NCBI GenBank assembly: GCA_000182565.2
Contig: KQ257458.1
DNA length: 64,000 nt
Direction: 5' to 3' (one strand)
Source: Spizellomyces punctatus DAOM BR117
Lineage: Eukaryota
Below the pieces are notes generated by a model. It made no database searches. It worked only from the letters and a program-made list of their open reading frames with translations, and was not told the DNA's origin. Below are positions 167 through 11,804 of this stretch, piece after piece. Both the position numbers and the translations under genes were made by a program. Positions within the stretch are counted from its first letter, which is position 1. Every line of letters begins with the position of its first letter.

Positions 167-766
167 TGTAACGACGAGGACGTCTTCGAGAGATCGCGAG
201 TAAGCCCAAATCGGACGCGGGAAGCACGAATCGCGTGACCAACTCCACCGATTGGGTTACCGCGACCGAAAAAACCGGTTCGGAGAATGGCAATTGGCGC
301 ATTAGATTTCAGCGTGCCTCGTACAACCTGTGGAGGCCCGAGCCAGTGCGGAAAAGGAAGAGATCGGTACCGCCACCAATAAATCAGTTGCGGTGCAGCG
401 ACACCCATTAGTTTAGTTTAGTTTAACAGTTTATCCAAGAATCTTGTATAAAAAGGATGTATTCAATAAAATAAGTCGGGGGCAGAAGCCGTAGCGACAA
501 AAAATCCCCATAACTCGCTTCTCAACTCCAATCTTAGGTTAACAGGAACCTAACAGAGCGCTTCAACGGCCTGATCACCCGTACCGAAGCCTCTAAATCC
601 TGCTCGGTTCACAACTAACCGACTCTCCTTGCCTCTCGCCCTCAAGTCGCTACCGACGCCCAAAGAAAGGATTTGGAGACTACGATTCCTAGTACGGACA
701 CCCACACAACCTGCTAGGAGACCCAAGTTGTCTTTACTGTAGTCTACCAACAAAAAATCCGTTACA
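167..766 (+). mobile_element. 3' LTR (600 bp) of a plus-strand LTR retrotransposon whose body lies upstream of the window
   Basis: Perfect terminal inverted repeat TGTAACG...CGTTACA, preceded by a PPT and not followed by a PBS. Contains TATAAAAA (~447) and AATAAA (~465). Bases ~441-766 are near-identical to the reverse complement of 2804-3131. Confidence 0.88.
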
Positions 767-2661: not shown

Positions 2662-2788
2662 GAAGTCTGTTTCCGAAATGAGAGAAAAGGTTTCTGAGTA
2701 GCTACCTGAGCGGATCTCGGTTTGCGCAAGAGTTTCAGTATGACCGAATAAGGTTTTCAGCTGAATTTGAGAGGGGAAGGCAGTTCAT

Positions 2789-2803
2789 CGCGCTTCTCCA
2801 CCA
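2789..2803 (-). other. Primer-binding site (probably tRNA-Ala)
   Basis: Minus strand reads TGGTGGAGAAGCGCG directly after the LTR end, complementary to a ...UCUCCACCA-3' tRNA end. Confidence 0.7.
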
Positions 2804-3376
2804 TGTAATGGATTTTTTGTTGGTAGACTATGGTAAAGACAACTTGGGTCTCCTAGCAGGTTGTGTGGGTGTCCGTACTAGGAATCGTAGTCTCCAAATC
2901 CTTTCTTTGGGCGTCGGTAGCGACTTGAGGGCGAGAGGCAAGGAGAGTCGGTTAGTTGTGAACCGAGCAGGATTTAGAGGCTTCAGTGCGGGTGATCAGG
3001 CCGTTGAAGCGCTCTGTTAGGTTCCTGTTAACCTAGGATTGGGGTTGAGAAGCTAGTTGTGGGGATTTTTTTGTCGCTATGGCTTCTGGCCACCAACTTA
3101 TTTTATTGAATTCCTCTTTTTATACAAGAATATGCTACGGTAACATCTACACTAGTTTCTGTAGCCTTCATTAGGGTGGCGGCGTCCGATCTTCCCATCT
3201 CGGACCATCGCCATGATCGATCATGGCTGCGTAATGTATCCTTCACGCTGCGCTGGTGTAGCCCAGAACCGAGCTTGATCTTAGGGGTTTCGAAGCTTAG
3301 GTTACAATTGCGGAAACCTCAATCATGGTCACCTGATGCCTTTGAGCGAACCGGTTTATCAGAGTCGTTCACTACA
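2804..3376 (-). repeat. 5' LTR (573 bp) of the minus-strand retrotransposon
   Basis: Minus strand reads TGTAGTG...CATTACA (TG..CA ends with short inverted repeat), is followed by the PBS, and is homologous to LTR 167-766 over its 3' ~325 bp. Confidence 0.85.
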
Positions 3377-4349
3377 TCATCGTGGAATGTGTTTTGAAGG
3401 CTCGATCACGACAGATGGTACCTCGGTGTCAGTTTACTTGAAACATCCTGAAGCTGACAAGTATGGAAAGCGCAGCGGCGGAGGGAAAAAGTCAGCAAAC
3501 ACAATGGAGGCAGAGGTTAAAGTGCAATATGTGGAGAAAAACTTACCTGCTTGTCGAGTAGCAGAGAATGTTGTTGTTATCGACCCAAACAAGTGTGACA
3601 TTCTCTACTGCCAAGACAGCATTGGTATGACATTTCGCTACACCTCCAACCAGCAAGCCATGGAGACAGGTAGCCGTTGACAGCAAAAGGAACGACAGCA
3701 GATGAAGAAGGGGGAAATTGACCTCATAGAATCACATATCCCTAGCCACAAAACAATGAACCTCATGGATTTTACTCGCTACCTTCTCATTCGCTGTGCT
3801 GATTCGGATCGTTGCAAGGAATTCTACTCACATCCTGCCCACACGCGGTGGAAGTGGCACTCCTTCATCAATCAGCAGCGAAGTGAATCAGACCTCATAA
3901 GTGCCATGCACAACAAATACAGTGAAAACTTTACCATTGTGATGGGTGATTGGAGCGATGCCGGTCGAACTGCCAGATTTCAGACCTCATCAAAGACAAA
4001 AGGTTGGCACACCATCTTTAAGCGGAACAGGATCAACTGCTTCCTTCTTGATGAGTACAAGACCTCATCTGTCTGCCCTCACTGTTCATCCGATGACTTC
4101 CTTGAAAAAGGCTTCAAAACACGACCTCATTCAAGACCTTGGTGACGAAGAGAAGGCAAGGTTGAAAAAGTCCATGGATTGCTGGGTTGTACCAACCCTA
4201 ACTGTTTGCAGCAAGACTGGACATCGGGAATGCGCTACTGGAACAGGGACACACTGAGCACCTGCAATATGCTGATGATCGTGCAATCAATGTTGGATGG
4301 ACATGGTAGACCAGAGGTGTTCAGCAGGAGTGTTCCAGCCGTAGCCTAG
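3377..4349 (+). pseudogene. Fz1: Fanzor1 (eukaryotic TnpB-like RNA-guided RuvC nuclease, SpuFz1-like), C-terminal half, 5' interrupted by an LTR element, two in-frame TGA stops
   Basis: One frame contains FEGSITTDGTSVSV, RuvC-I VVVIDPN, VMGDWS, RuvC-II LLDEYKTSSVCPHC, Zn-ribbon GLLGCTNPNC and RuvC-III YWNRD, ending GRPEVFSRSVPAVA-TAG. Stops at 3678-3680 and 4143-4145. Confidence 0.95.
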
Positions 4350-4363
4350 ATTGGTTAGATTAG

Positions 4364-4452
4364 CTTTTCCGAACCGGTTATCGCCGGTTCAATCCCTGGT
4401 GCGGGTGCTAGTGCCAATACCCATCGGCTCCGCACTAACAATGATGATTGTG
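4364..4452 (+). ncRNA. Fanzor omega-RNA: scaffold ~4364-4437 (transposon right end) plus ~15-nt guide from the flank (ACAATGATGATTGTG)
   Basis: Starts ~15 nt after the Fanzor stop. Hairpin GAACCGG-ttatcg-CCGGTTC (4371-4390), GGGT/ACCC stem, and loop TAGTGC (4409-4414) complementary to terminal GCACTA (4432-4437), a pseudoknot. Matches my recollection of the SpuFz1 scaffold ending ...GGCTCCGCACTA. Confidence 0.88.
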
Positions 4453-4932
4453 AACATACGATATGACTACAGATTTAAATATATTGGCAGAGGAACGTCT
4501 TAGGGTTACCTGTTTGTCCTGTCCGCCTTTGAAGAACACTGCGCTCCGTTTGTTTCTTGCATGGGTTTTTTTGAAACGTTTTTGCATTGGATAACAAAGA
4601 TGCGATACAGTAGAACATTGGGAACGATGGGTTCAGACATTTTGGCGTAAAGGACGTTTGCACAATGTAGGTTTAGGTCAAACCCCCACATATTGGGATT
4701 CGGATAAGAATGTTGGTTTGGGGAAAGAGTTTGAACACATTGGGAAGAATAAAAAAACAAGAGTAATCCTTCATCTTTACAAACACAAAAAAGCCTTTTA
4801 TTTACAAACCGGCAATCGGATACGTATTTCACAACGGTATACACCTTTTTTTCCTATATACAAGCCAGTTGACTTGTGAATTTCCATACGAGTTTCGACT
4901 TGGGTTTCGTTTGCCAAACTCTTAGTTTGGGT

Positions 4933-5127
4933 TACTTTTACTTTGCGGCTTTCTTCGCTCCACCTGGCGCGGGTGCTGCATTCTTCTGTGCCTTCTGGGA
5001 GTGCTACGGCCGGTAATTTCTTCCCTACGATTTTTTCTTTTCCGAGCTTCGACCCTTGAGGGGATGGAGCCTACCAAGGCGAGGACAACAAACAATGTGT
5101 GTAAATGCTTGAAAAGTAGCAGGTCAT
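4933..5127 (-). pseudogene. Decayed paralogue of the small secreted protein at 5941-6243
   Basis: ATGACCTGCTACTTTTCAAGCATTTAC...TTGTTTGTTGTCCTCGCCTTG...GCTCCATCCCCTCAAG aligns with the 5' end of 5941-6243 but has deletions and an early TAG. The upstream flank is also homologous. Confidence 0.7.
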
Positions 5128-5940
5128 TCCTAAAGTCCTAGTCTTGTTTTCGTTTGTTGGTCAAGTTTTTGCAGTTGAATGAATGAAAGAAAGGATGTTA
5201 TCTGCGTCGTTGTCTTTGTTTTGTCTTGGTTTGGGGTTTACGAGATACATGCTTTCCCAATACACATTTTTTTTGTTTTACATACAAGCCAGTCGAGTTT
5301 CGACATGGGCTTTTTCCCGTCGTTTGCTGAACTCTTTCAAGTGGGTTTGACCGGCGTTTATTTCTTTGCAGATAAAAGCGGTACGGCTTTATTTACAATG
5401 GTTTCAGAGGCCAGTACGGTCTTCTTTGTAGGCGTTAGGACTGTGAAGTGGTTTGATATATCTTGCCAACAAATCCCAAGTCTACCCTGCGTAGACAACG
5501 CAGAGGCTGTTAAACTGGGCTTGCGATATGCATTGTCTTTGAGCCATATCTGGAATAAACGATACATGACGAATCCCATTCGAAACTCCAACCATGATTT
5601 AAATGCATTTTTGCATAGTCTTTCTTTGAAGCATTCAGATGGAGGGAATGCATTTTAATGTGGGGAGTGTGATAAAATGCCCAGAATTCTTTGTTTATTT
5701 ACATTCACAGATACTGACCCTCCCAATACATATTTTTGTGTTTCTATATACAAGCTAGTCCATTTCAAAGAATTTACAAAAGAGCTTAGACATGACCTTT
5801 TTCATCGTTGCTATACTCTGTCTGGATGTCCCGAATTTCTTTCCCTCATTTACACTATATACACTTTACTCTTTTTGTTTTTTTACCAAGCCGAAAGAGT
5901 CCATAGAGGAATTCACAAAAGTCTGGACATGGCACATTGA

Positions 5941-6243
5941 TCATTTTTTCGGATTACCAACGCCGCCGGGTCGGGTAGGAGTAACAGGCCTGCCTGCCCC
6001 ATTCTGAGGAGGAGGGCTCGGATATTTGTTAACTTTAACGGGAACTCTCTCGCCTTTTGGTAAGTTCGTTTTGGGGAGCACGGGCGGCTTTGGAGGGCGA
6101 CCGATGGTCCCGGGAGTAACGTCAATGGCTGGCTTGGGTTTCGGCGGTGGGGCTTGCGGGGATGGAGCGGCCAGAGCTGACACGGCTAGCAAGGCGAGAA
6201 CGACGAACAAGAATGCGTAGATGTTTGACAAGTAGCGGGCCAT
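5941..6243 (-). CDS. Small secreted Pro/Lys-rich protein (100 aa)
   Basis: Clear signal peptide (AFLFVVLALLAVSALA-AP) and Pro-rich basic mature part. A GC-rich ORF within AT-rich flanks. Confidence 0.75.
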   Translation of the reverse strand: MARYLSNIYAFLFVVLALLAVSALAAPSPQAPPPKPKPAIDVTPGTIGRPPKPPVLPKTNLPKGERVPVKVNKYPSPPPQNGAGRPVTPTRPGGVGNPKK

Positions 6244-7869
6244 TTTTTGAGTAGTTGGATTTTGGTTTTCGTTTGTTGGAACTATCGAGTGTTTACTGAT
6301 GATGAATGAATGGGGGGGAGTGTTATCCTGGTCGTCTTTTTATGCACATTGTCAGGCATAGAATACTTTACTATAGTCACTATTCGGGTCGCGGCATGCC
6401 GGTACCTGTTACATAATATTCCACACCCTGTTTTTTGTTGTATTCTGTACAGTGCTATCAACACCAGTTCTCATGTTCCGATAGGCTCTCTTGCAACATG
6501 TAAATGACATGAACAAATGCTGGTTACAAATCAATCCACTCTGTTTTTTGATAGCATTTGGCATACGCATACAAAATGCTATGAAAAAGATTACAGATGA
6601 GACGTGCGCTTTTGGTTTGTGATTTAAGATGGTGCGGGTGCGCATTAGCAAGCGAGTTCTTGTCTCTGTTTTGGGGTCATTGGGAGACGGGCTCGGGGTG
6701 CAATTTGAGAACGGCTCAACTTGAACAAAGAGATCATCAGAACGAGTTTCCAAAACCTGACATTGAAACGTTCCATTAAAGCACCAGTTGAAGCAACCCG
6801 CTTGCCAAAAAACAACCAATACAAAACCAAAAAGAACGCTTTTACGCAAGCACTCATCAACCCCTCTCGCAACATTATCCATCGGCGCATTCATCCCATC
6901 AACCAACAGAAAATATCTGTAAACAAGATAAAAAAAATATTTTCATAGAGACAATAATGATAAAAAGCCCTAGTTCATGTACAAAGATTGCCTCACCGCC
7001 TCAGCCATAGAAAAACCCGACCAGGGTTTTCCAAAAGCAGGGGATGCGTAATAAACAAAAGAAAGGGTTGGGTGTTGTAAAAGCGGAAAGCAACTGGCAT
7101 GTACATGAAATCAACGTAAATAAAAAAAAGAGAAATGGAGAAAGCAATGTCAGTAGTAAAGTATTCTTGAATACAAGACTGGCTTATTGCCCCCATTTCT
7201 GTTTACATTTTACCATTCTATTTTACATTTTGGGGCTGTTATTTAAGACGCAAACTATATATCGCAAACTATGCAAATGACAAACATTATCTCATCTCGT
7301 TTGTTTGTTCATTTTCTATATTCCTGTAATATCCACATTAATAACACCCCATACTTTTGGAATATCCGTTTCCGTTTGACTTGAAAAAAGGCACTCGAAT
7401 AAGACATCACTAATGTGCAAGACATATCCTCAAAGTCCTGAACGAAAAGGTGCCATCTCTCGTCGGATGAGATGCGTGTTGGCGGATCCTCACCATTGAC
7501 ACATACGTTCCCATCTCAAAATCAAATCGTTGAAAAGTTTATAACATTCATATTAGGCATCATAAATACAAAAAAAAAAAGATAAACACCTTTTCCGCTA
7601 AACAAAAAACAAGCCCACATTTTCTTGTACATTTCTCACGATTCCTGACACTTGTTTTTCGCCCTCAACTTTTCAACACCACACCAAATCCACGACCACA
7701 ACGATAAACACAGCGGACTCGTTGACCGATTCCACACAATACGGTAGTCACTAGCGCGCAAGATAAATCAATGACCATCACCACCGTCACCAAATTGCCA
7801 AAAAAAAAAAAAAACCACCGCACACGGCCAACTCCATAGTTCTCGCAAAATCATTCGAGTCCGAAACCA

Positions 7870-9966
7870 TCACCCCCGGAAAAAAACACCATCAACAAGC
7901 TCTTCACTCGCCATCCCCGCTGGATCCTCACCCATCATTCGCCCCACCATCATGACATCCTCCATTCCTTGTCCGTATCCATAGCCGTAGCCTCCATACA
8001 CGTTATACGTATTGACATTGTACGAGGGGGGACGCGAGATGCCGTACGAGGCGTATTGGTGCTCGTAGGGGGGATAGTAGGGTTGGGAGGTGTTGGAGTG
8101 GGTGCGCGTCATGGCGGGCACCGCACCCATGCCCGGTCCCATGCCCGGGGGTCCCATTCCGGGTCCCATCGCGGCGGGTCCCATGCCGGGTACTGCCATC
8201 GGTGCTGGTGGTGCTGGTGGTGCTATGGGAGGTGCTTGGTCTTGCGAATGAGCGGAATGTGTGGGAGTCAAGGGCGTCTTTTCAGTCAACTGAAGCTCCG
8301 TCAACTGCTTCAACAAGACATCCAAGTCCACACCAGGTGGAATCGTCCCGGCTTTGGTCTGCATTTCCAAAAATTGCGCCAAAACAGTCTTGAGCATTTC
8401 GGGCGGGAGCGACGAAGGCTTGACGTTTTGCGGGGGTGTAGTTGGGGGATAGTCCATCATGAAATCGTCGTCTGAATCTCGACGGGGCCGCTTGCCGGAT
8501 TTGGGCTTTGGAAACGTCGACAAGGAGGGCGCTGATGTGCCGTAATTCGTGGTGGGTTCCTGGCTGGCGGCTCTAGAGTGGATCGCCGGGTTGTATACGG
8601 TCGTGGGCACGATATGGGATGGGCTGCGCTGCATTGGTGTAGTACTTGTTGTAAATGACGGTGCAGACGTGGAAAGGACATTGGGGTGTGCCATGGGCGA
8701 ACACGTCGTCAAGACCCCGCTTGTGTTGGTCCCCGCAATCGCGGGTTGATGTACGGTAGACATCGTAGCCATGGGACGGTGATGCGGGCGGGATGCAATG
8801 GGGGCTTTGGCAACCGGTGCACTGGATTGTTGTTGCTCTTTTCCCTTTTCCTTTTTAGGTCCCCTGTTGCGTTTGCGAATGACATCGCTCTTCATGGAGA
8901 TAGGACGCACGACGCCGTGTAGTTTGTAAAAAAGGCCACAGGCGTTGCAGAGAGGGTCGCCATTGGCATCGCGGCGCCAAAGAGGCGTCTTGTTGGTGCC
9001 GCAGTTGGAACAAGCAGATGGCGGTACATACGACGATAATGACGACGAAGCTTGTGAGGAACTGCGCCGGCTGTTGCTGGCCGATTTGATTTTCCGCACG
9101 GGTTTGACGGTGGACGTGCTGCTTGTAGAAGCGACCGAAGACGAAAACTCGACGCCTGAATCGGGCGGCGGCGTTCCCGCCATGCTTGAATGCGGATTGT
9201 CGATGAGCGAAACAGTGGGCAGTGATCCACTTGCCCAGGAGGTTATGGGGGGCGATGAAGCGACATCGCCCGGTGGGAAATAAAGCTGTTCACCCGGGCC
9301 ACCCAGAGTCCGATTGTCCCGGCTCACACTCGAGTGAGCATCGCTAATGTTTCCTGCGTGCGCGAGCAAGTCTGCGGCCTTGAGCGAGGCAGAAAGAGGA
9401 CTTGTAGAAAGGGAGGGATGGTTGGGAACGGGTTGTTTGATGAATGGATCATCCATAGTAGTAGTTGTAGTAGGATCAGTAGTAACAAATCCAAACGGAT
9501 CCCATGAATCGTCATCGAGTGTAAAGAAAGATTCAAGATACGAATGCTCCAGTTGCTTGCGCTCTCGTAAGAGTGACATGTGCATGAGCCTCCATGTCAT
9601 ATTCTCCAATCTCGCTCCATTGGGCAGAGCGTCCCGAGCGCGAGTACATAGTTTCCATACAGAGTGAGAATCCGCAGATGTTCTAGCACCCCGTATGAGC
9701 CACGAGAGTAGATTGTCCCCCTCCAGTTTGACCAACGTGTCTGTAAGCGATAGTGAGTTGAGTGTGAGTGAAAATGAGAGGAATGAGTGAAAACACTTAC
9801 TAATAGAGTAGAGATGTGTGCGTGTGTGTGGGGAAAGAACTAGAGTTGCGTGTGCGTGTATGAATAGTCCAAATGACTTGCGTGCGTGAAAAGTTGTCGT
9901 TGTCCGTAAGTGTCCGTAGATGGTCGCTTGCGGGAGGAAGATTGAAATCACTCTCTCCTTACACAC
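7870..9966 (-). CDS. areA: AreA/Nit2/Gat1-type GATA transcription factor (true start uncertain; 9742-9966 is probably intron)
   Basis: N-terminal [10 protein letters not shown] motif (DUF1752-type) and GATA finger [33 protein letters not shown] with basic tail. Confidence 0.88.
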
Positions 9967-10193
9967 AAATGAACGATGATCCCCCAGACCAAAAATCCCG
10001 TTGTCCTTCCTTTACGCCAATAATGTCTGCGTGGGAATATCCTTGCCCCCAACCCCCCCTTCGCTCTCACGTGAGCTCAATTCATGACTAAGCATGTAGA
10101 TTCCCGACACATTCCGCACAGATAACTTATCTTTTCATCTAGAATGAATTAGTATTCCATACTAGTTCAACACTGCCATTTGCATTTTCAACA

Positions 10194-10275
10194 GCACGCT
10201 TGTCCGAGCGGTCTAAGGAGCTGGTCTCAAGTTCCAGTCTCGAAAGAGGCGTGAGTTCGAATCTCACAGCGTGCA
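10194..10275 (+). tRNA. tRNA-Leu(CAA)
   Basis: 82-nt cloverleaf: acceptor GCACGCT/AGCGTGC, anticodon loop CT-CAA-GT, long variable arm, GTTCGAATC T-loop. Confidence 0.97.
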
Positions 10276-10677
10276 CTTGCCGGCATCGTGAGAACTATTT
10301 TTACTTCTATTCCGTACATGTTGCAGGATGCTGAACATTCCTTTTGGCCGTTAGAGTTGATATTTCCATGGTAGATCTCATATCATTGTGTGACGAGAGG
10401 GAAACACTCGCATTACGGCAGTCCCCTGGCTTGCTTGCTAGTGCCTCTGGTGTGGTCAATTGAGATATCCTTCAATGTGCCAATGTCAAGTGCAGGTCCA
10501 GGTCGTATATTCACGGACATATATATATCAACGCTACAATGAACAAACGTTGACAAGTATATCACACATCGGCACACCCGGTTCCCAACCCCCGACCAAG
10601 TTTCAAAAACCGTTGCCGTGCATTCAAAGCCCCCAAACGCATTCCCACCGCCAAAAGTAAAAAAATCTAGGATCTTT

Positions 10678-11383
10678 TTACTTTTTTCCAGACTTTTTGG
10701 CCTCTGCCTGTTGCGCCTTGAGCACCCGCTTCACAATCTTTTGTTCCTCAATCAAAAAGGCACGGACAATGCTGCAATGAAGTTTGGCTTAGCTAGAATT
10801 CATGACATGACAAGAAAAAACAGTACACACCGAGAGCGGACGCAGATACCGCATCGGCTACCACCATAAGGCCGGGTGACGGACTTTTGACGGCGAGAAA
10901 GGCGGGAGTACTGGGTGGGGCGGAGAGCAGGGATCTAACAAAAATCATCAATACAAAAGGTCAGATTGTGGATTCCTCATGAGATGCACGCGACATGCTG
11001 TTCCCCGCTCCCCAAGAATTCCAATTTGTTGCATTGTCCTCCCGTTCGGTTTGTTTTTGTCATCCCCCATTTGCCCACCAGCTGTCCTATCCCAATCCAA
11101 ACAACAAGTGTCGTCTCCGTCCATCGCCAATCCCATTTCAGACATTGGATGCTCACCCCTGAAAGGACGCTGCCGCAATCACCGCACTTGGGAGCCGACG
11201 CCTTCTTGACAATGTGAAGGACGGCCAACTTTCCACCTAAACGTTAAACCATGAGTTTACACATAGCCACTCCACACATTCGAAATGTTCACGACAAAAC
11301 GCACCAGGCGTCTTGATGACCCGGGTCTTGTTGGACTTGGTGTTGTAGGACAACCGACGGCGGTACGTCACGCGCTGGACCAT
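10678..11383 (-). CDS. RPL34: 60S ribosomal protein L34 (eL34), 4 coding exons
   Basis: Exons [27 protein letters not shown] / APKCGDCG / [13 protein letters not shown] / [14 protein letters not shown], joined by GT-AG introns. Confidence 0.96.
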
Positions 11384-11453
11384 GTTGACTTTTACGAATG
11401 AAAGGATCAGAGGTTAGCTTCCAGGTCTGGCTTCCAATGTTTTTGCGACCCCT

Positions 11454-11492
11454 CCATCCATCCATCCATTCGTTTACATCCATCCATCCATC
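11454..11492. repeat. Imperfect (ATCC)n microsatellite upstream of the RPL34 start (probable 5' UTR intron)
   Basis: Runs of ccatccatccatcc. Confidence 0.7.
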
Positions 11493-11804
11493 CTACATAA
11501 GTCTCATCTTCTCGCATCTCCAATCCTACGTTTGCATTTCGTTGATGCCCTTTCTCAAAAACCCACCTAAGTGTCGTTTAGGCCGTGGCAAGCTTTACTG
11601 GGAAAGGAAAAAGGAAGGAATCCTTCAAAAGACTGCAAGTGTGTGGGAATTCCCACGTTGGAATATCACGTGATAGTGGGAACGGAGTTATAAATTTATT
11701 ATCGCACGTTCTCGGATTTACAATCCATCTTCCTCCTCCTCCTTCCTTGGCATTGTTCGTTGTGAGCGTCCCCCTCATCCCTTCCGATAAGGTTGCAGAC
11801 TCCA

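Follow-up and report, generated by a model that had tools for sequence, protein, structure and literature searches.

The window, that is, the whole 64,000-nt stretch of Spizellomyces punctatus DNA that was analysed, contains the right end of a dead copy of the Fanzor1 element Spu-1 (SpuFz1), with the 3' half of the nuclease gene followed by an omega-RNA scaffold (Table 1). The ORF remnant matches SpuFz1 (8GKH) in a phmmer search with E=1.3e-84, and the catalytic motifs IDPNK, LDEYKT and WNRDT are still legible in it. The 5' half of the gene lies outside the window at G000:C9:314782-315859, together with CATA, the left terminal inverted repeat (TIR) and a TATA-like box. Several marks of Spu-1 membership are present, namely a Fanzor1 RuvC protein homologous to SpuFz1, TIRs of 30-33 bp that terminate in TA, and a left-end CATA (C9:314782, outside the window); the nuclease ORF itself is not intact and carries two stops and a 38.9-kb insertion. 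The element's own ends show that it integrated at a CATA site, and host flank begins at 4438, directly after the scaffold. The nearest intact copy, at G000:C15:326.5k, is 96-97% identical to the broken copy in DNA. Rfam gave no match within 2700-4700.

Table 1. Features at the right end of the broken Spu-1 copy and in the adjoining insertion (positions in the window).
Feature	Position	Strand	Basis or remark
3' LTR of second related element, nested, opposite orientation	167..766	+	326 bp common with outer LTR
gag-like ORF of outer element, 457 aa	1411..2784	-	position after LTR and C-terminal Cys/His motif
5' LTR of outer Ty3 element, antisense to Fanzor	2804..3376	-	partner LTR starts at G000:C9:315860
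Target-site duplication TCAT, right copy, 4 bp	3377..3380	+	intact copy reads TCGT
Fanzor1 ORF, 3' half (RuvC/NUC part)	3377..4349	+	phmmer to 8GKH
SpuFz1 omega-RNA scaffold, 74 nt	4364..4437	+	canonical type, not ghost
Stem-loop 1, 7 Watson-Crick pairs and U-G, 4-nt loop	4371..4390	+	contacts protein in cryo-EM structure
Stem 2, TGGTGC (4397-4402) paired with GCACTA (4432-4437)	4397..4437	+	MFE fold, cryo-EM numbering
Right terminal inverted repeat, 33 nt including terminal TA	4405..4437	.	32/33 identical to left repeat at G000:C9:314782
Predicted 15-nt guide in host flank, 5-bp hairpin 4438-4442/4447-4451	4438..4452	+	conservation break and fold

A genome search with positions 4300-4460 found at least 40 right ends and one partial match (best 40 of 176 candidates scored), similar to the number of loci (42) given by Saito et al., 2023 (PMC10432273). 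The locus under study has already been catalogued, since Supplementary Data 1 of that paper lists under 'Loci with Fz' a 43,112-bp entry whose end coordinates agree and which contains each half of the ORF; the same source gives 11 Spu-1 loci with embedded genes, Gypsy/Ty3 among these. The element sits in an array of related short repeats (repeat families D3-D5; 4846-6339 and L051:1-240), in which small signal-peptide-like, Pro-rich ORFs lie on the minus strand, for example at 5941-6339, and the left flank of the element (L051:1-240 region) matches window positions 5840-5981 at 79%.

An LTR insertion in the ORF had been proposed in an earlier note on this DNA. The insertion is real, at 3376/3377 with a 4-bp TCAT duplication, but it is not a single LTR: nested elements amounting to 38.9 kb separate the two ORF halves, with direct LTRs and TCAT copies at the two borders; about 8 kb of this stretch reads N, and the 5' half of the gene lies beyond. 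Because the outer and the nested LTR have 326 bp in common, they appear as an inverted repeat. The gag-like ORF has no Pfam match. Group I chromodomains may target the elements that carry them to heterochromatin. A Chromo domain (E=3e-19 and 2e-16) is found in the Pol ORFs that this LTR family has at two other Spu-1 loci, and chromodomains of Group I show similarity to HP1, a reader of H3K9me (PMC3605345).

The two in-frame stops described in the earlier note are confirmed as TGA codons at 3678-3680 and 4143-4145. In the nearest intact copy both are Arg codons, both fall at CpG positions, and the broken copy differs by a further 18 amino-acid changes. When branch changes are polarised, 34 of the 48 are CG>TG/CA; by coding effect, 13 changes are synonymous, 26 are non-synonymous and 2 create stop codons. 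The remnant has a CpG observed/expected ratio of 0.55, compared with 0.96 for the intact sister copy and 0.88 for the right flank, and private non-CpG changes number only 5 in ~1740 sites (~0.3%). From this mutation spectrum we infer that the body of the element was CpG-methylated and then deaminated, yielding both stops. Only transposons carry 5mC in Spizellomyces (PMC12695648). Between the two outer LTRs, 14 of 541 positions differ, all at CpG (8 and 6 of 31 sites), a lower per-copy CpG loss than in the ORF (35/89), and both TCAT copies carry a CG>CA change relative to TCGT in the intact copy. The shared change, at one site, and the difference in rate together suggest that decay of the ORF began before the Ty3 insertion. 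Decay within the LTR relative to distance from the Spu-1 end was also looked at, with 0/5 CpGs lost within 250 nt, a count that rests on few sites. Taken by its decay signature, its LTR nest and the chromodomain family, the locus is best described as silenced.

The omega-RNA scaffold at this end folds into the two stems of a 74-75-nt SpuFz1 omega-RNA, with a minimum free energy (MFE) of -34.9 kcal/mol (z -3.2; equal stability in 1/200 shuffles). The hairpin GAACCGG/CCGGTTC noticed earlier is real, at 4371-4377/4384-4390, and the MFE fold adds one U-G pair to it. For TAGTGC/GCACTA, which had been read as a pseudoknot, the complementarity stands but the label does not: according to PMC10432273 the SpuFz1 omega-RNA has no pseudoknot, and GCACTA is used in stem 2. 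A terminal pseudoknot of the TnpB/Cas12 type is rejected on that report, on the MFE pairing and on the finding that TAGTGC is altered in the open-frame copy C7_806k. The GGGT/ACCC stem likewise exists in distal stem 2, but this distal part is dispensable, the flexible C40-G70 portion being one that can be trimmed with activity kept (PMC10432273); both TAGTGC (4409-4414) and GGGT/ACCC lie inside it. TAGTGC/GCACTA is a symmetry internal to the TIR and perhaps serves as a binding repeat at the DNA level.

With numbering placed by eye on ID16, the protein-contacting bases U5, C6, C7, U16, U18, C19, G20, U35, G37, A72 and A75 are all present. The variant G17A is common only to the broken copy and its nearest intact relative at G000:C15:326.5k, and G17A together with the missing bulged G22 is also found in the active omega-RNA ID20. 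Compared by eye, the scaffold equals ID20 (PMC10432273) minus one C, and for ID20 a CATA TAM was detected (Supplementary Table, PMC10432273); inactivity of the scaffold is for this reason unlikely. ID20 has an ORF that is the nearest intact relative (96-97%) and differs in locus and guide, in its open ORF and in a promoter 2 kb upstream. The RNA of the broken copy would very probably be biochemically competent, loading into the protein and guiding it if made. Since SpuFz1 protein and RNA are active together when supplied on different plasmids and ghost scaffolds are functional (PMC10432273, PMC13434818), loading in trans is plausible. For cleavage, a nearly identical scaffold has been active with a guide that was reprogrammed (PMC10432273).

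Among known systems, canonical Spu-1/SpuFz1 loci (PMC3627910, PMC10432273) share 33-bp TIRs, TA ends, CATA on the left and a 74-75-nt scaffold after the stop codon, and differ from the copy studied here in that its ORF is dead. Ghost Spu-1 elements (134 loci; Saito et al., 2023; PMC13434818) resemble it in having an omega-RNA without a nuclease and have been proposed as a guide repertoire in trans, but they form a distinct family of ~550 nt with different inverted repeats and stem 2. The present locus is a broken full element with a Fanzor remnant and canonical ends, and lacks the ~550-nt ghost interior.

In the broken copy itself, the scaffold has lost 0/7 CpGs and the ORF 35/89 (Fisher P=0.045), so the claim that the scaffold is less decayed than the ORF is borne out and the two have not diverged equally. 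For a single copy the sparing only reaches P 0.03-0.045, at a locus picked because it looked intact. CpG columns that had never decayed in 16 open-frame copies (9 of these 16 'intact' copies being open only across the stretch compared) were counted in 25 broken copies, 24 of them with a right end. By this column count, CpG loss is 145/444 in the ORF body, 0/119 in the scaffold and 1/47 in the spacer together with the final 140 nt of the ORF; at the left end it is 0/21 in the TIR and 0/19 in the 5'UTR, counts based on a small number of sites (4 strict columns in 10-11 copies). Under the strict rule, scaffold CpGs 12 and 62 drop out because open-frame copies vary at them. For the 19 copies with enough ORF, scaffold loss is 0/94 against 32.4 expected (Poisson P ~1e-14), and in 23/24 broken right ends the scaffold is within 2 substitutions of that of an open-frame copy. 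Scaffold intactness is a property of the family and not peculiar to this copy.

A nearest-neighbour profile of 24 broken copies, in which all CpGs (including 12 and 62) are kept, gives the extent of this effect. At the left end, 0/40 CpGs are lost within 0-150 nt and 21/50 at 150-300 nt; in the middle, 368/955 are lost (reciprocal baseline 99/686); and towards the right end the loss falls from 23/76 at 225-300 nt to 15/103 at 150-225 nt, 3/52 at 75-150 nt (reciprocal baseline 4/53) and 6/151 at 0-75 nt (3/148). Within 150 nt of the right end, loss is 9/203 compared with a reciprocal baseline of 7/201. The ramp is symmetric: loss amounts to 15% in the 150-225 nt bin of the right end, and deeper inside the element it is 28-50% from either end. 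The copy C7_276k was counted in the column count and dropped from the profile as a duplicate of C7_283k; the right ends at G000:C7:276422 and C7:283420 lie 7 kb apart and share alignment statistics, scaffold variant and terminal frame, probably through local duplication.

The 5'UTR shows 10/1307 non-CpG changes and the ORF 125/22170, the same rate, yet the CpGs of the 5'UTR are spared; sparing is thus CpG-specific, which fits missing methylation and not selection. Near the right end, private non-CpG changes are also low in broken copies, with 2/1413 in the scaffold (8.0 expected, P=0.014) and 8/3151 in the final 140 nt of the ORF (17.8 expected, P=0.008). Intact copies have a similar gap (scaffold 1/699 versus ORF 47/14316), so much of this deficit is inherited, and what is left of it leaves room for selection or conversion. 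As a control for edge effects in general, the outer parts of LTR pairs lost 11/119 CpGs and the inner parts 32/184 (P=0.06), no more than a trend, and one confounded by several flanks being decayed repeats themselves; 2/6 pairs aligned only in part.

Taken together, we consider it likely that the guide gene is intact but probably idle and lies in a silenced element at an end spared from methylation. The element inserted at a CATA site; its body would then have been CpG-methylated and have deaminated into both stops; and a Ty3 element of the chromodomain family entered the ORF, which had probably begun to decay, with further elements nesting inside up to 38.9 kb. The scaffold would have survived for two reasons, namely that the copy is young, as its private non-CpG change indicates, and that the outer ~150 bp at both Spu-1 ends escape CpG decay. 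The CpG pattern points to an unmethylated edge or to protein-covered ends as the cause of sparing; candidates are a boundary with host chromatin that spans roughly one nucleosome, a protein bound to the TIR, or promoters at the ends. Since the left end, which has no guide RNA, is equally spared, the sparing is explained without selection on the RNA. An unmethylated right end would also be expected from an active local promoter, and this counts against the idle reading. The RNA is nonetheless probably not made because the upstream promoter has been cut off, and we regard its expression, as an RNA of 88-90 nt with a flank guide of 14-15 nt, as improbable. Antisense LTR elements and a distance of 39 kb separate the scaffold from the element 5' end with its TATA-like box, and the LTR next to it has the opposite orientation, so that RNA supply appears doubtful. 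Bacterial TnpB obtains its guide from the 3'-terminal part of the mRNA that encodes it (Nety et al. 2023, PMC10278001), the model for why a severed promoter matters; we did not find this route shown for SpuFz1 in the sources available to us in part.

The earlier note had gone further and suggested that the RNA, if transcribed, could act as a guide donor in trans. In the fuller form considered here, transcription would start from a promoter of the right end itself (or from one in an antisense LTR), the omega-RNA would load into Fanzor made elsewhere by intact copies, and the dead copy would be restored when the empty allele is cut following excision or outcrossing, which would place the scaffold under selection without a live ORF. 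The scaffold equals an active one (ID20), none of the 94 scaffold CpGs in 19 copies is lost where 32.4 losses were expected, scaffolds show a mild non-CpG deficit, at least 7 full-length open copies are possible protein sources, ghost omega-RNAs function with SpuFz1 (PMC10432273, PMC13434818), and restorative homing in trans has been discussed for TnpB (PMC13565253). We nevertheless hold it to be rather unlikely. It leaves unexplained why the left end and the right-end DNA outside the scaffold are equally spared; conservation is thus not specific to the RNA. The dispensable distal stem is conserved as well as the protein-contacting part. Moreover, native omega-RNA is reported at only four loci and no transposase inside Spu-1 ends in the available parts of PMC10432273, and a 41-kb element is unlikely to excise. 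The part of the proposal that stands is that the RNA, if made, would very probably load and guide; against the donor role stand the equal sparing of the left end, a promoter 39 kb off, the methylation-type decay of the body, a guide that pairs with itself and the lack of a TAM+guide target in the assembly.

The last two points follow from the host flank. Right-end conservation ends after the terminal TA, and intact left ends read CATA+TIR, so the guide start at 4438 had been placed correctly. Guide bases 1-5 pair with bases 10-14, giving a computed seed pairing probability of 0.93-0.99 in the free RNA. Activity requires 10 nt of guide and levels off near 13 (PMC10432273). The suggestion that TAM-adjacent matches exist elsewhere was not borne out: in the gapped assembly, exact CATA+9-nt matches number 0, all 42 matches being at 1 mismatch (4 of them keep the TAM and 8 seed bases), and CATA+11 nt has 0 matches at <2 mismatches and 95 at 2 mismatches. 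These near-matches exceed those of a reversed control (95 vs 27 for CATA+11 nt, 42 vs 16 for CATA+9 nt), an excess we attribute to common ATGATG words as candidate cause. A site at C11:119591, with ACTA and 11 guide bases, has no scaffold and was treated as a chance match. Scans with 18 nt of guide and flank in viral sequences returned 10 matches, 0/10 preceded by CATA, and a metagenome scan with the 24-nt right flank returned 0 matches. If the RNA were made, its only target would be the empty site that excision would recreate, or an empty allele in another strain should one exist, the assembly offering no other.

Sequencing runs bear on the occupancy of this site. Run X1 (type guessed) holds one 229-nt contig covering 4321-4538, and extending about 85 nt beyond the guide, which is uninformative since the contig was selected by its match to this very sequence, and elsewhere only chance matches of 18-19 nt. 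Run X2 holds an identical 1,102-nt contig covering 4409-5510, with the element at the site, and may derive from the same strain. Among the read-end rows listed for four of nine runs compared with 3200-11700, none is an empty-site end.

Gene conversion or recombination among copies could instead homogenise the ends and erase decay, and the scaffolds do fall into few shared haplotypes, with CpG and non-CpG changes both low near the right end. The variant G17A, shared only with the closest ORF relative, fits vertical inheritance instead, and the 5'UTR retains non-CpG change at the level of the ORF; we judge this explanation very unlikely. Equally improbable is that, through chance and youth, the 74 nt merely escaped mutation: the single-copy P of only 0.03-0.045 at a locus noticed for looking intact and the tiny non-CpG divergence (5 private changes in ~1740 sites) would permit it, but the family deficit (0 vs 32.4 expected, Poisson P ~1e-14; at least 40 right ends, all those found examined) refutes it at family level, and chance contributes only at non-CpG sites.

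What the analysis contributes is a control: scaffold conservation in dead copies is not readable as selection, because a symmetric CpG end effect of ~150 bp gives the same picture. What the earlier note observed was largely right, with its structural label partly wrong, and its interpretation is partly supported. The use of orphan guides in trans is published as an idea, the trans-guide hypothesis being already contained in Saito et al., 2023 (PMC10432273); as an interpretation of this locus it is that published hypothesis, without specific support from the locus, which by itself does not advance it. In its available parts, that paper presents no analysis of this copy's RNA, CpG decay or end protection, and literature searches of partial coverage turned up no paper in which broken Fanzor copies donate omega-RNAs in trans, and none on the CpG end effect. 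Together with the guides in their flanks, the 24 broken right ends form a testable set, and the unique guide, if it turned up in native Fanzor RNPs, would be direct evidence that a locus with a dead nuclease supplies RNA for loading in trans. As a more speculative extension, to which we give little credence, the right ends of dead copies, kept open by a promoter or bound protein, may guide Fanzor in trans and guard their own sites together with 10-40-kb chromovirus nests. If true, dead Fanzor copies would be self-guarding heterochromatin islands, and this would be the first natural role shown for Fanzor. In ghosts of 550-780 bp, the end effect would leave much of the element unmethylated, and this could explain their continued transcription.

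Further observations concern the family at large. A search for the TIR motif, with a pattern that allowed at most 2 mismatches, showed CpG change in only 2/74 matches. At L051:913-972, non-CpG differences are dense relative to the otherwise 96-97% identical C15 copy, which suggests a short recombinant tract in either copy. At G000:C17:397559-397655, a left-end-like piece begins ~17 bp past the right end of an intact copy, whose guide enters another Spu-1 end.

One Ty3 family with a chromodomain integrase recurs inside Spu-1 copies at varied positions, in nests of ~9-41 kb. Its exact LTR-end motif has 31 of 50 matches inside 17/19 spans drawn around Spu-1 pieces, a partly post hoc delimitation, and Spu-1 DNA makes up ~0.4% of the genome. 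Six other LTR pairs comprise three with CpG-free flanks and one adjoining a further Spu-1 fragment. Recurrent landing in Spu-1, mentioned only briefly in the available parts of Saito et al., 2023 (PMC10432273), possibly reflects heterochromatin targeting or centromere-like clusters. Pairs of like ends, either two right halves or two left ones, lie opposed with LTR clusters between them at G000:C3:1309609-1335546, C21:317705-337000 and C8:555090-600168, an arrangement that may stem from rearrangement between nests or from misassembly.
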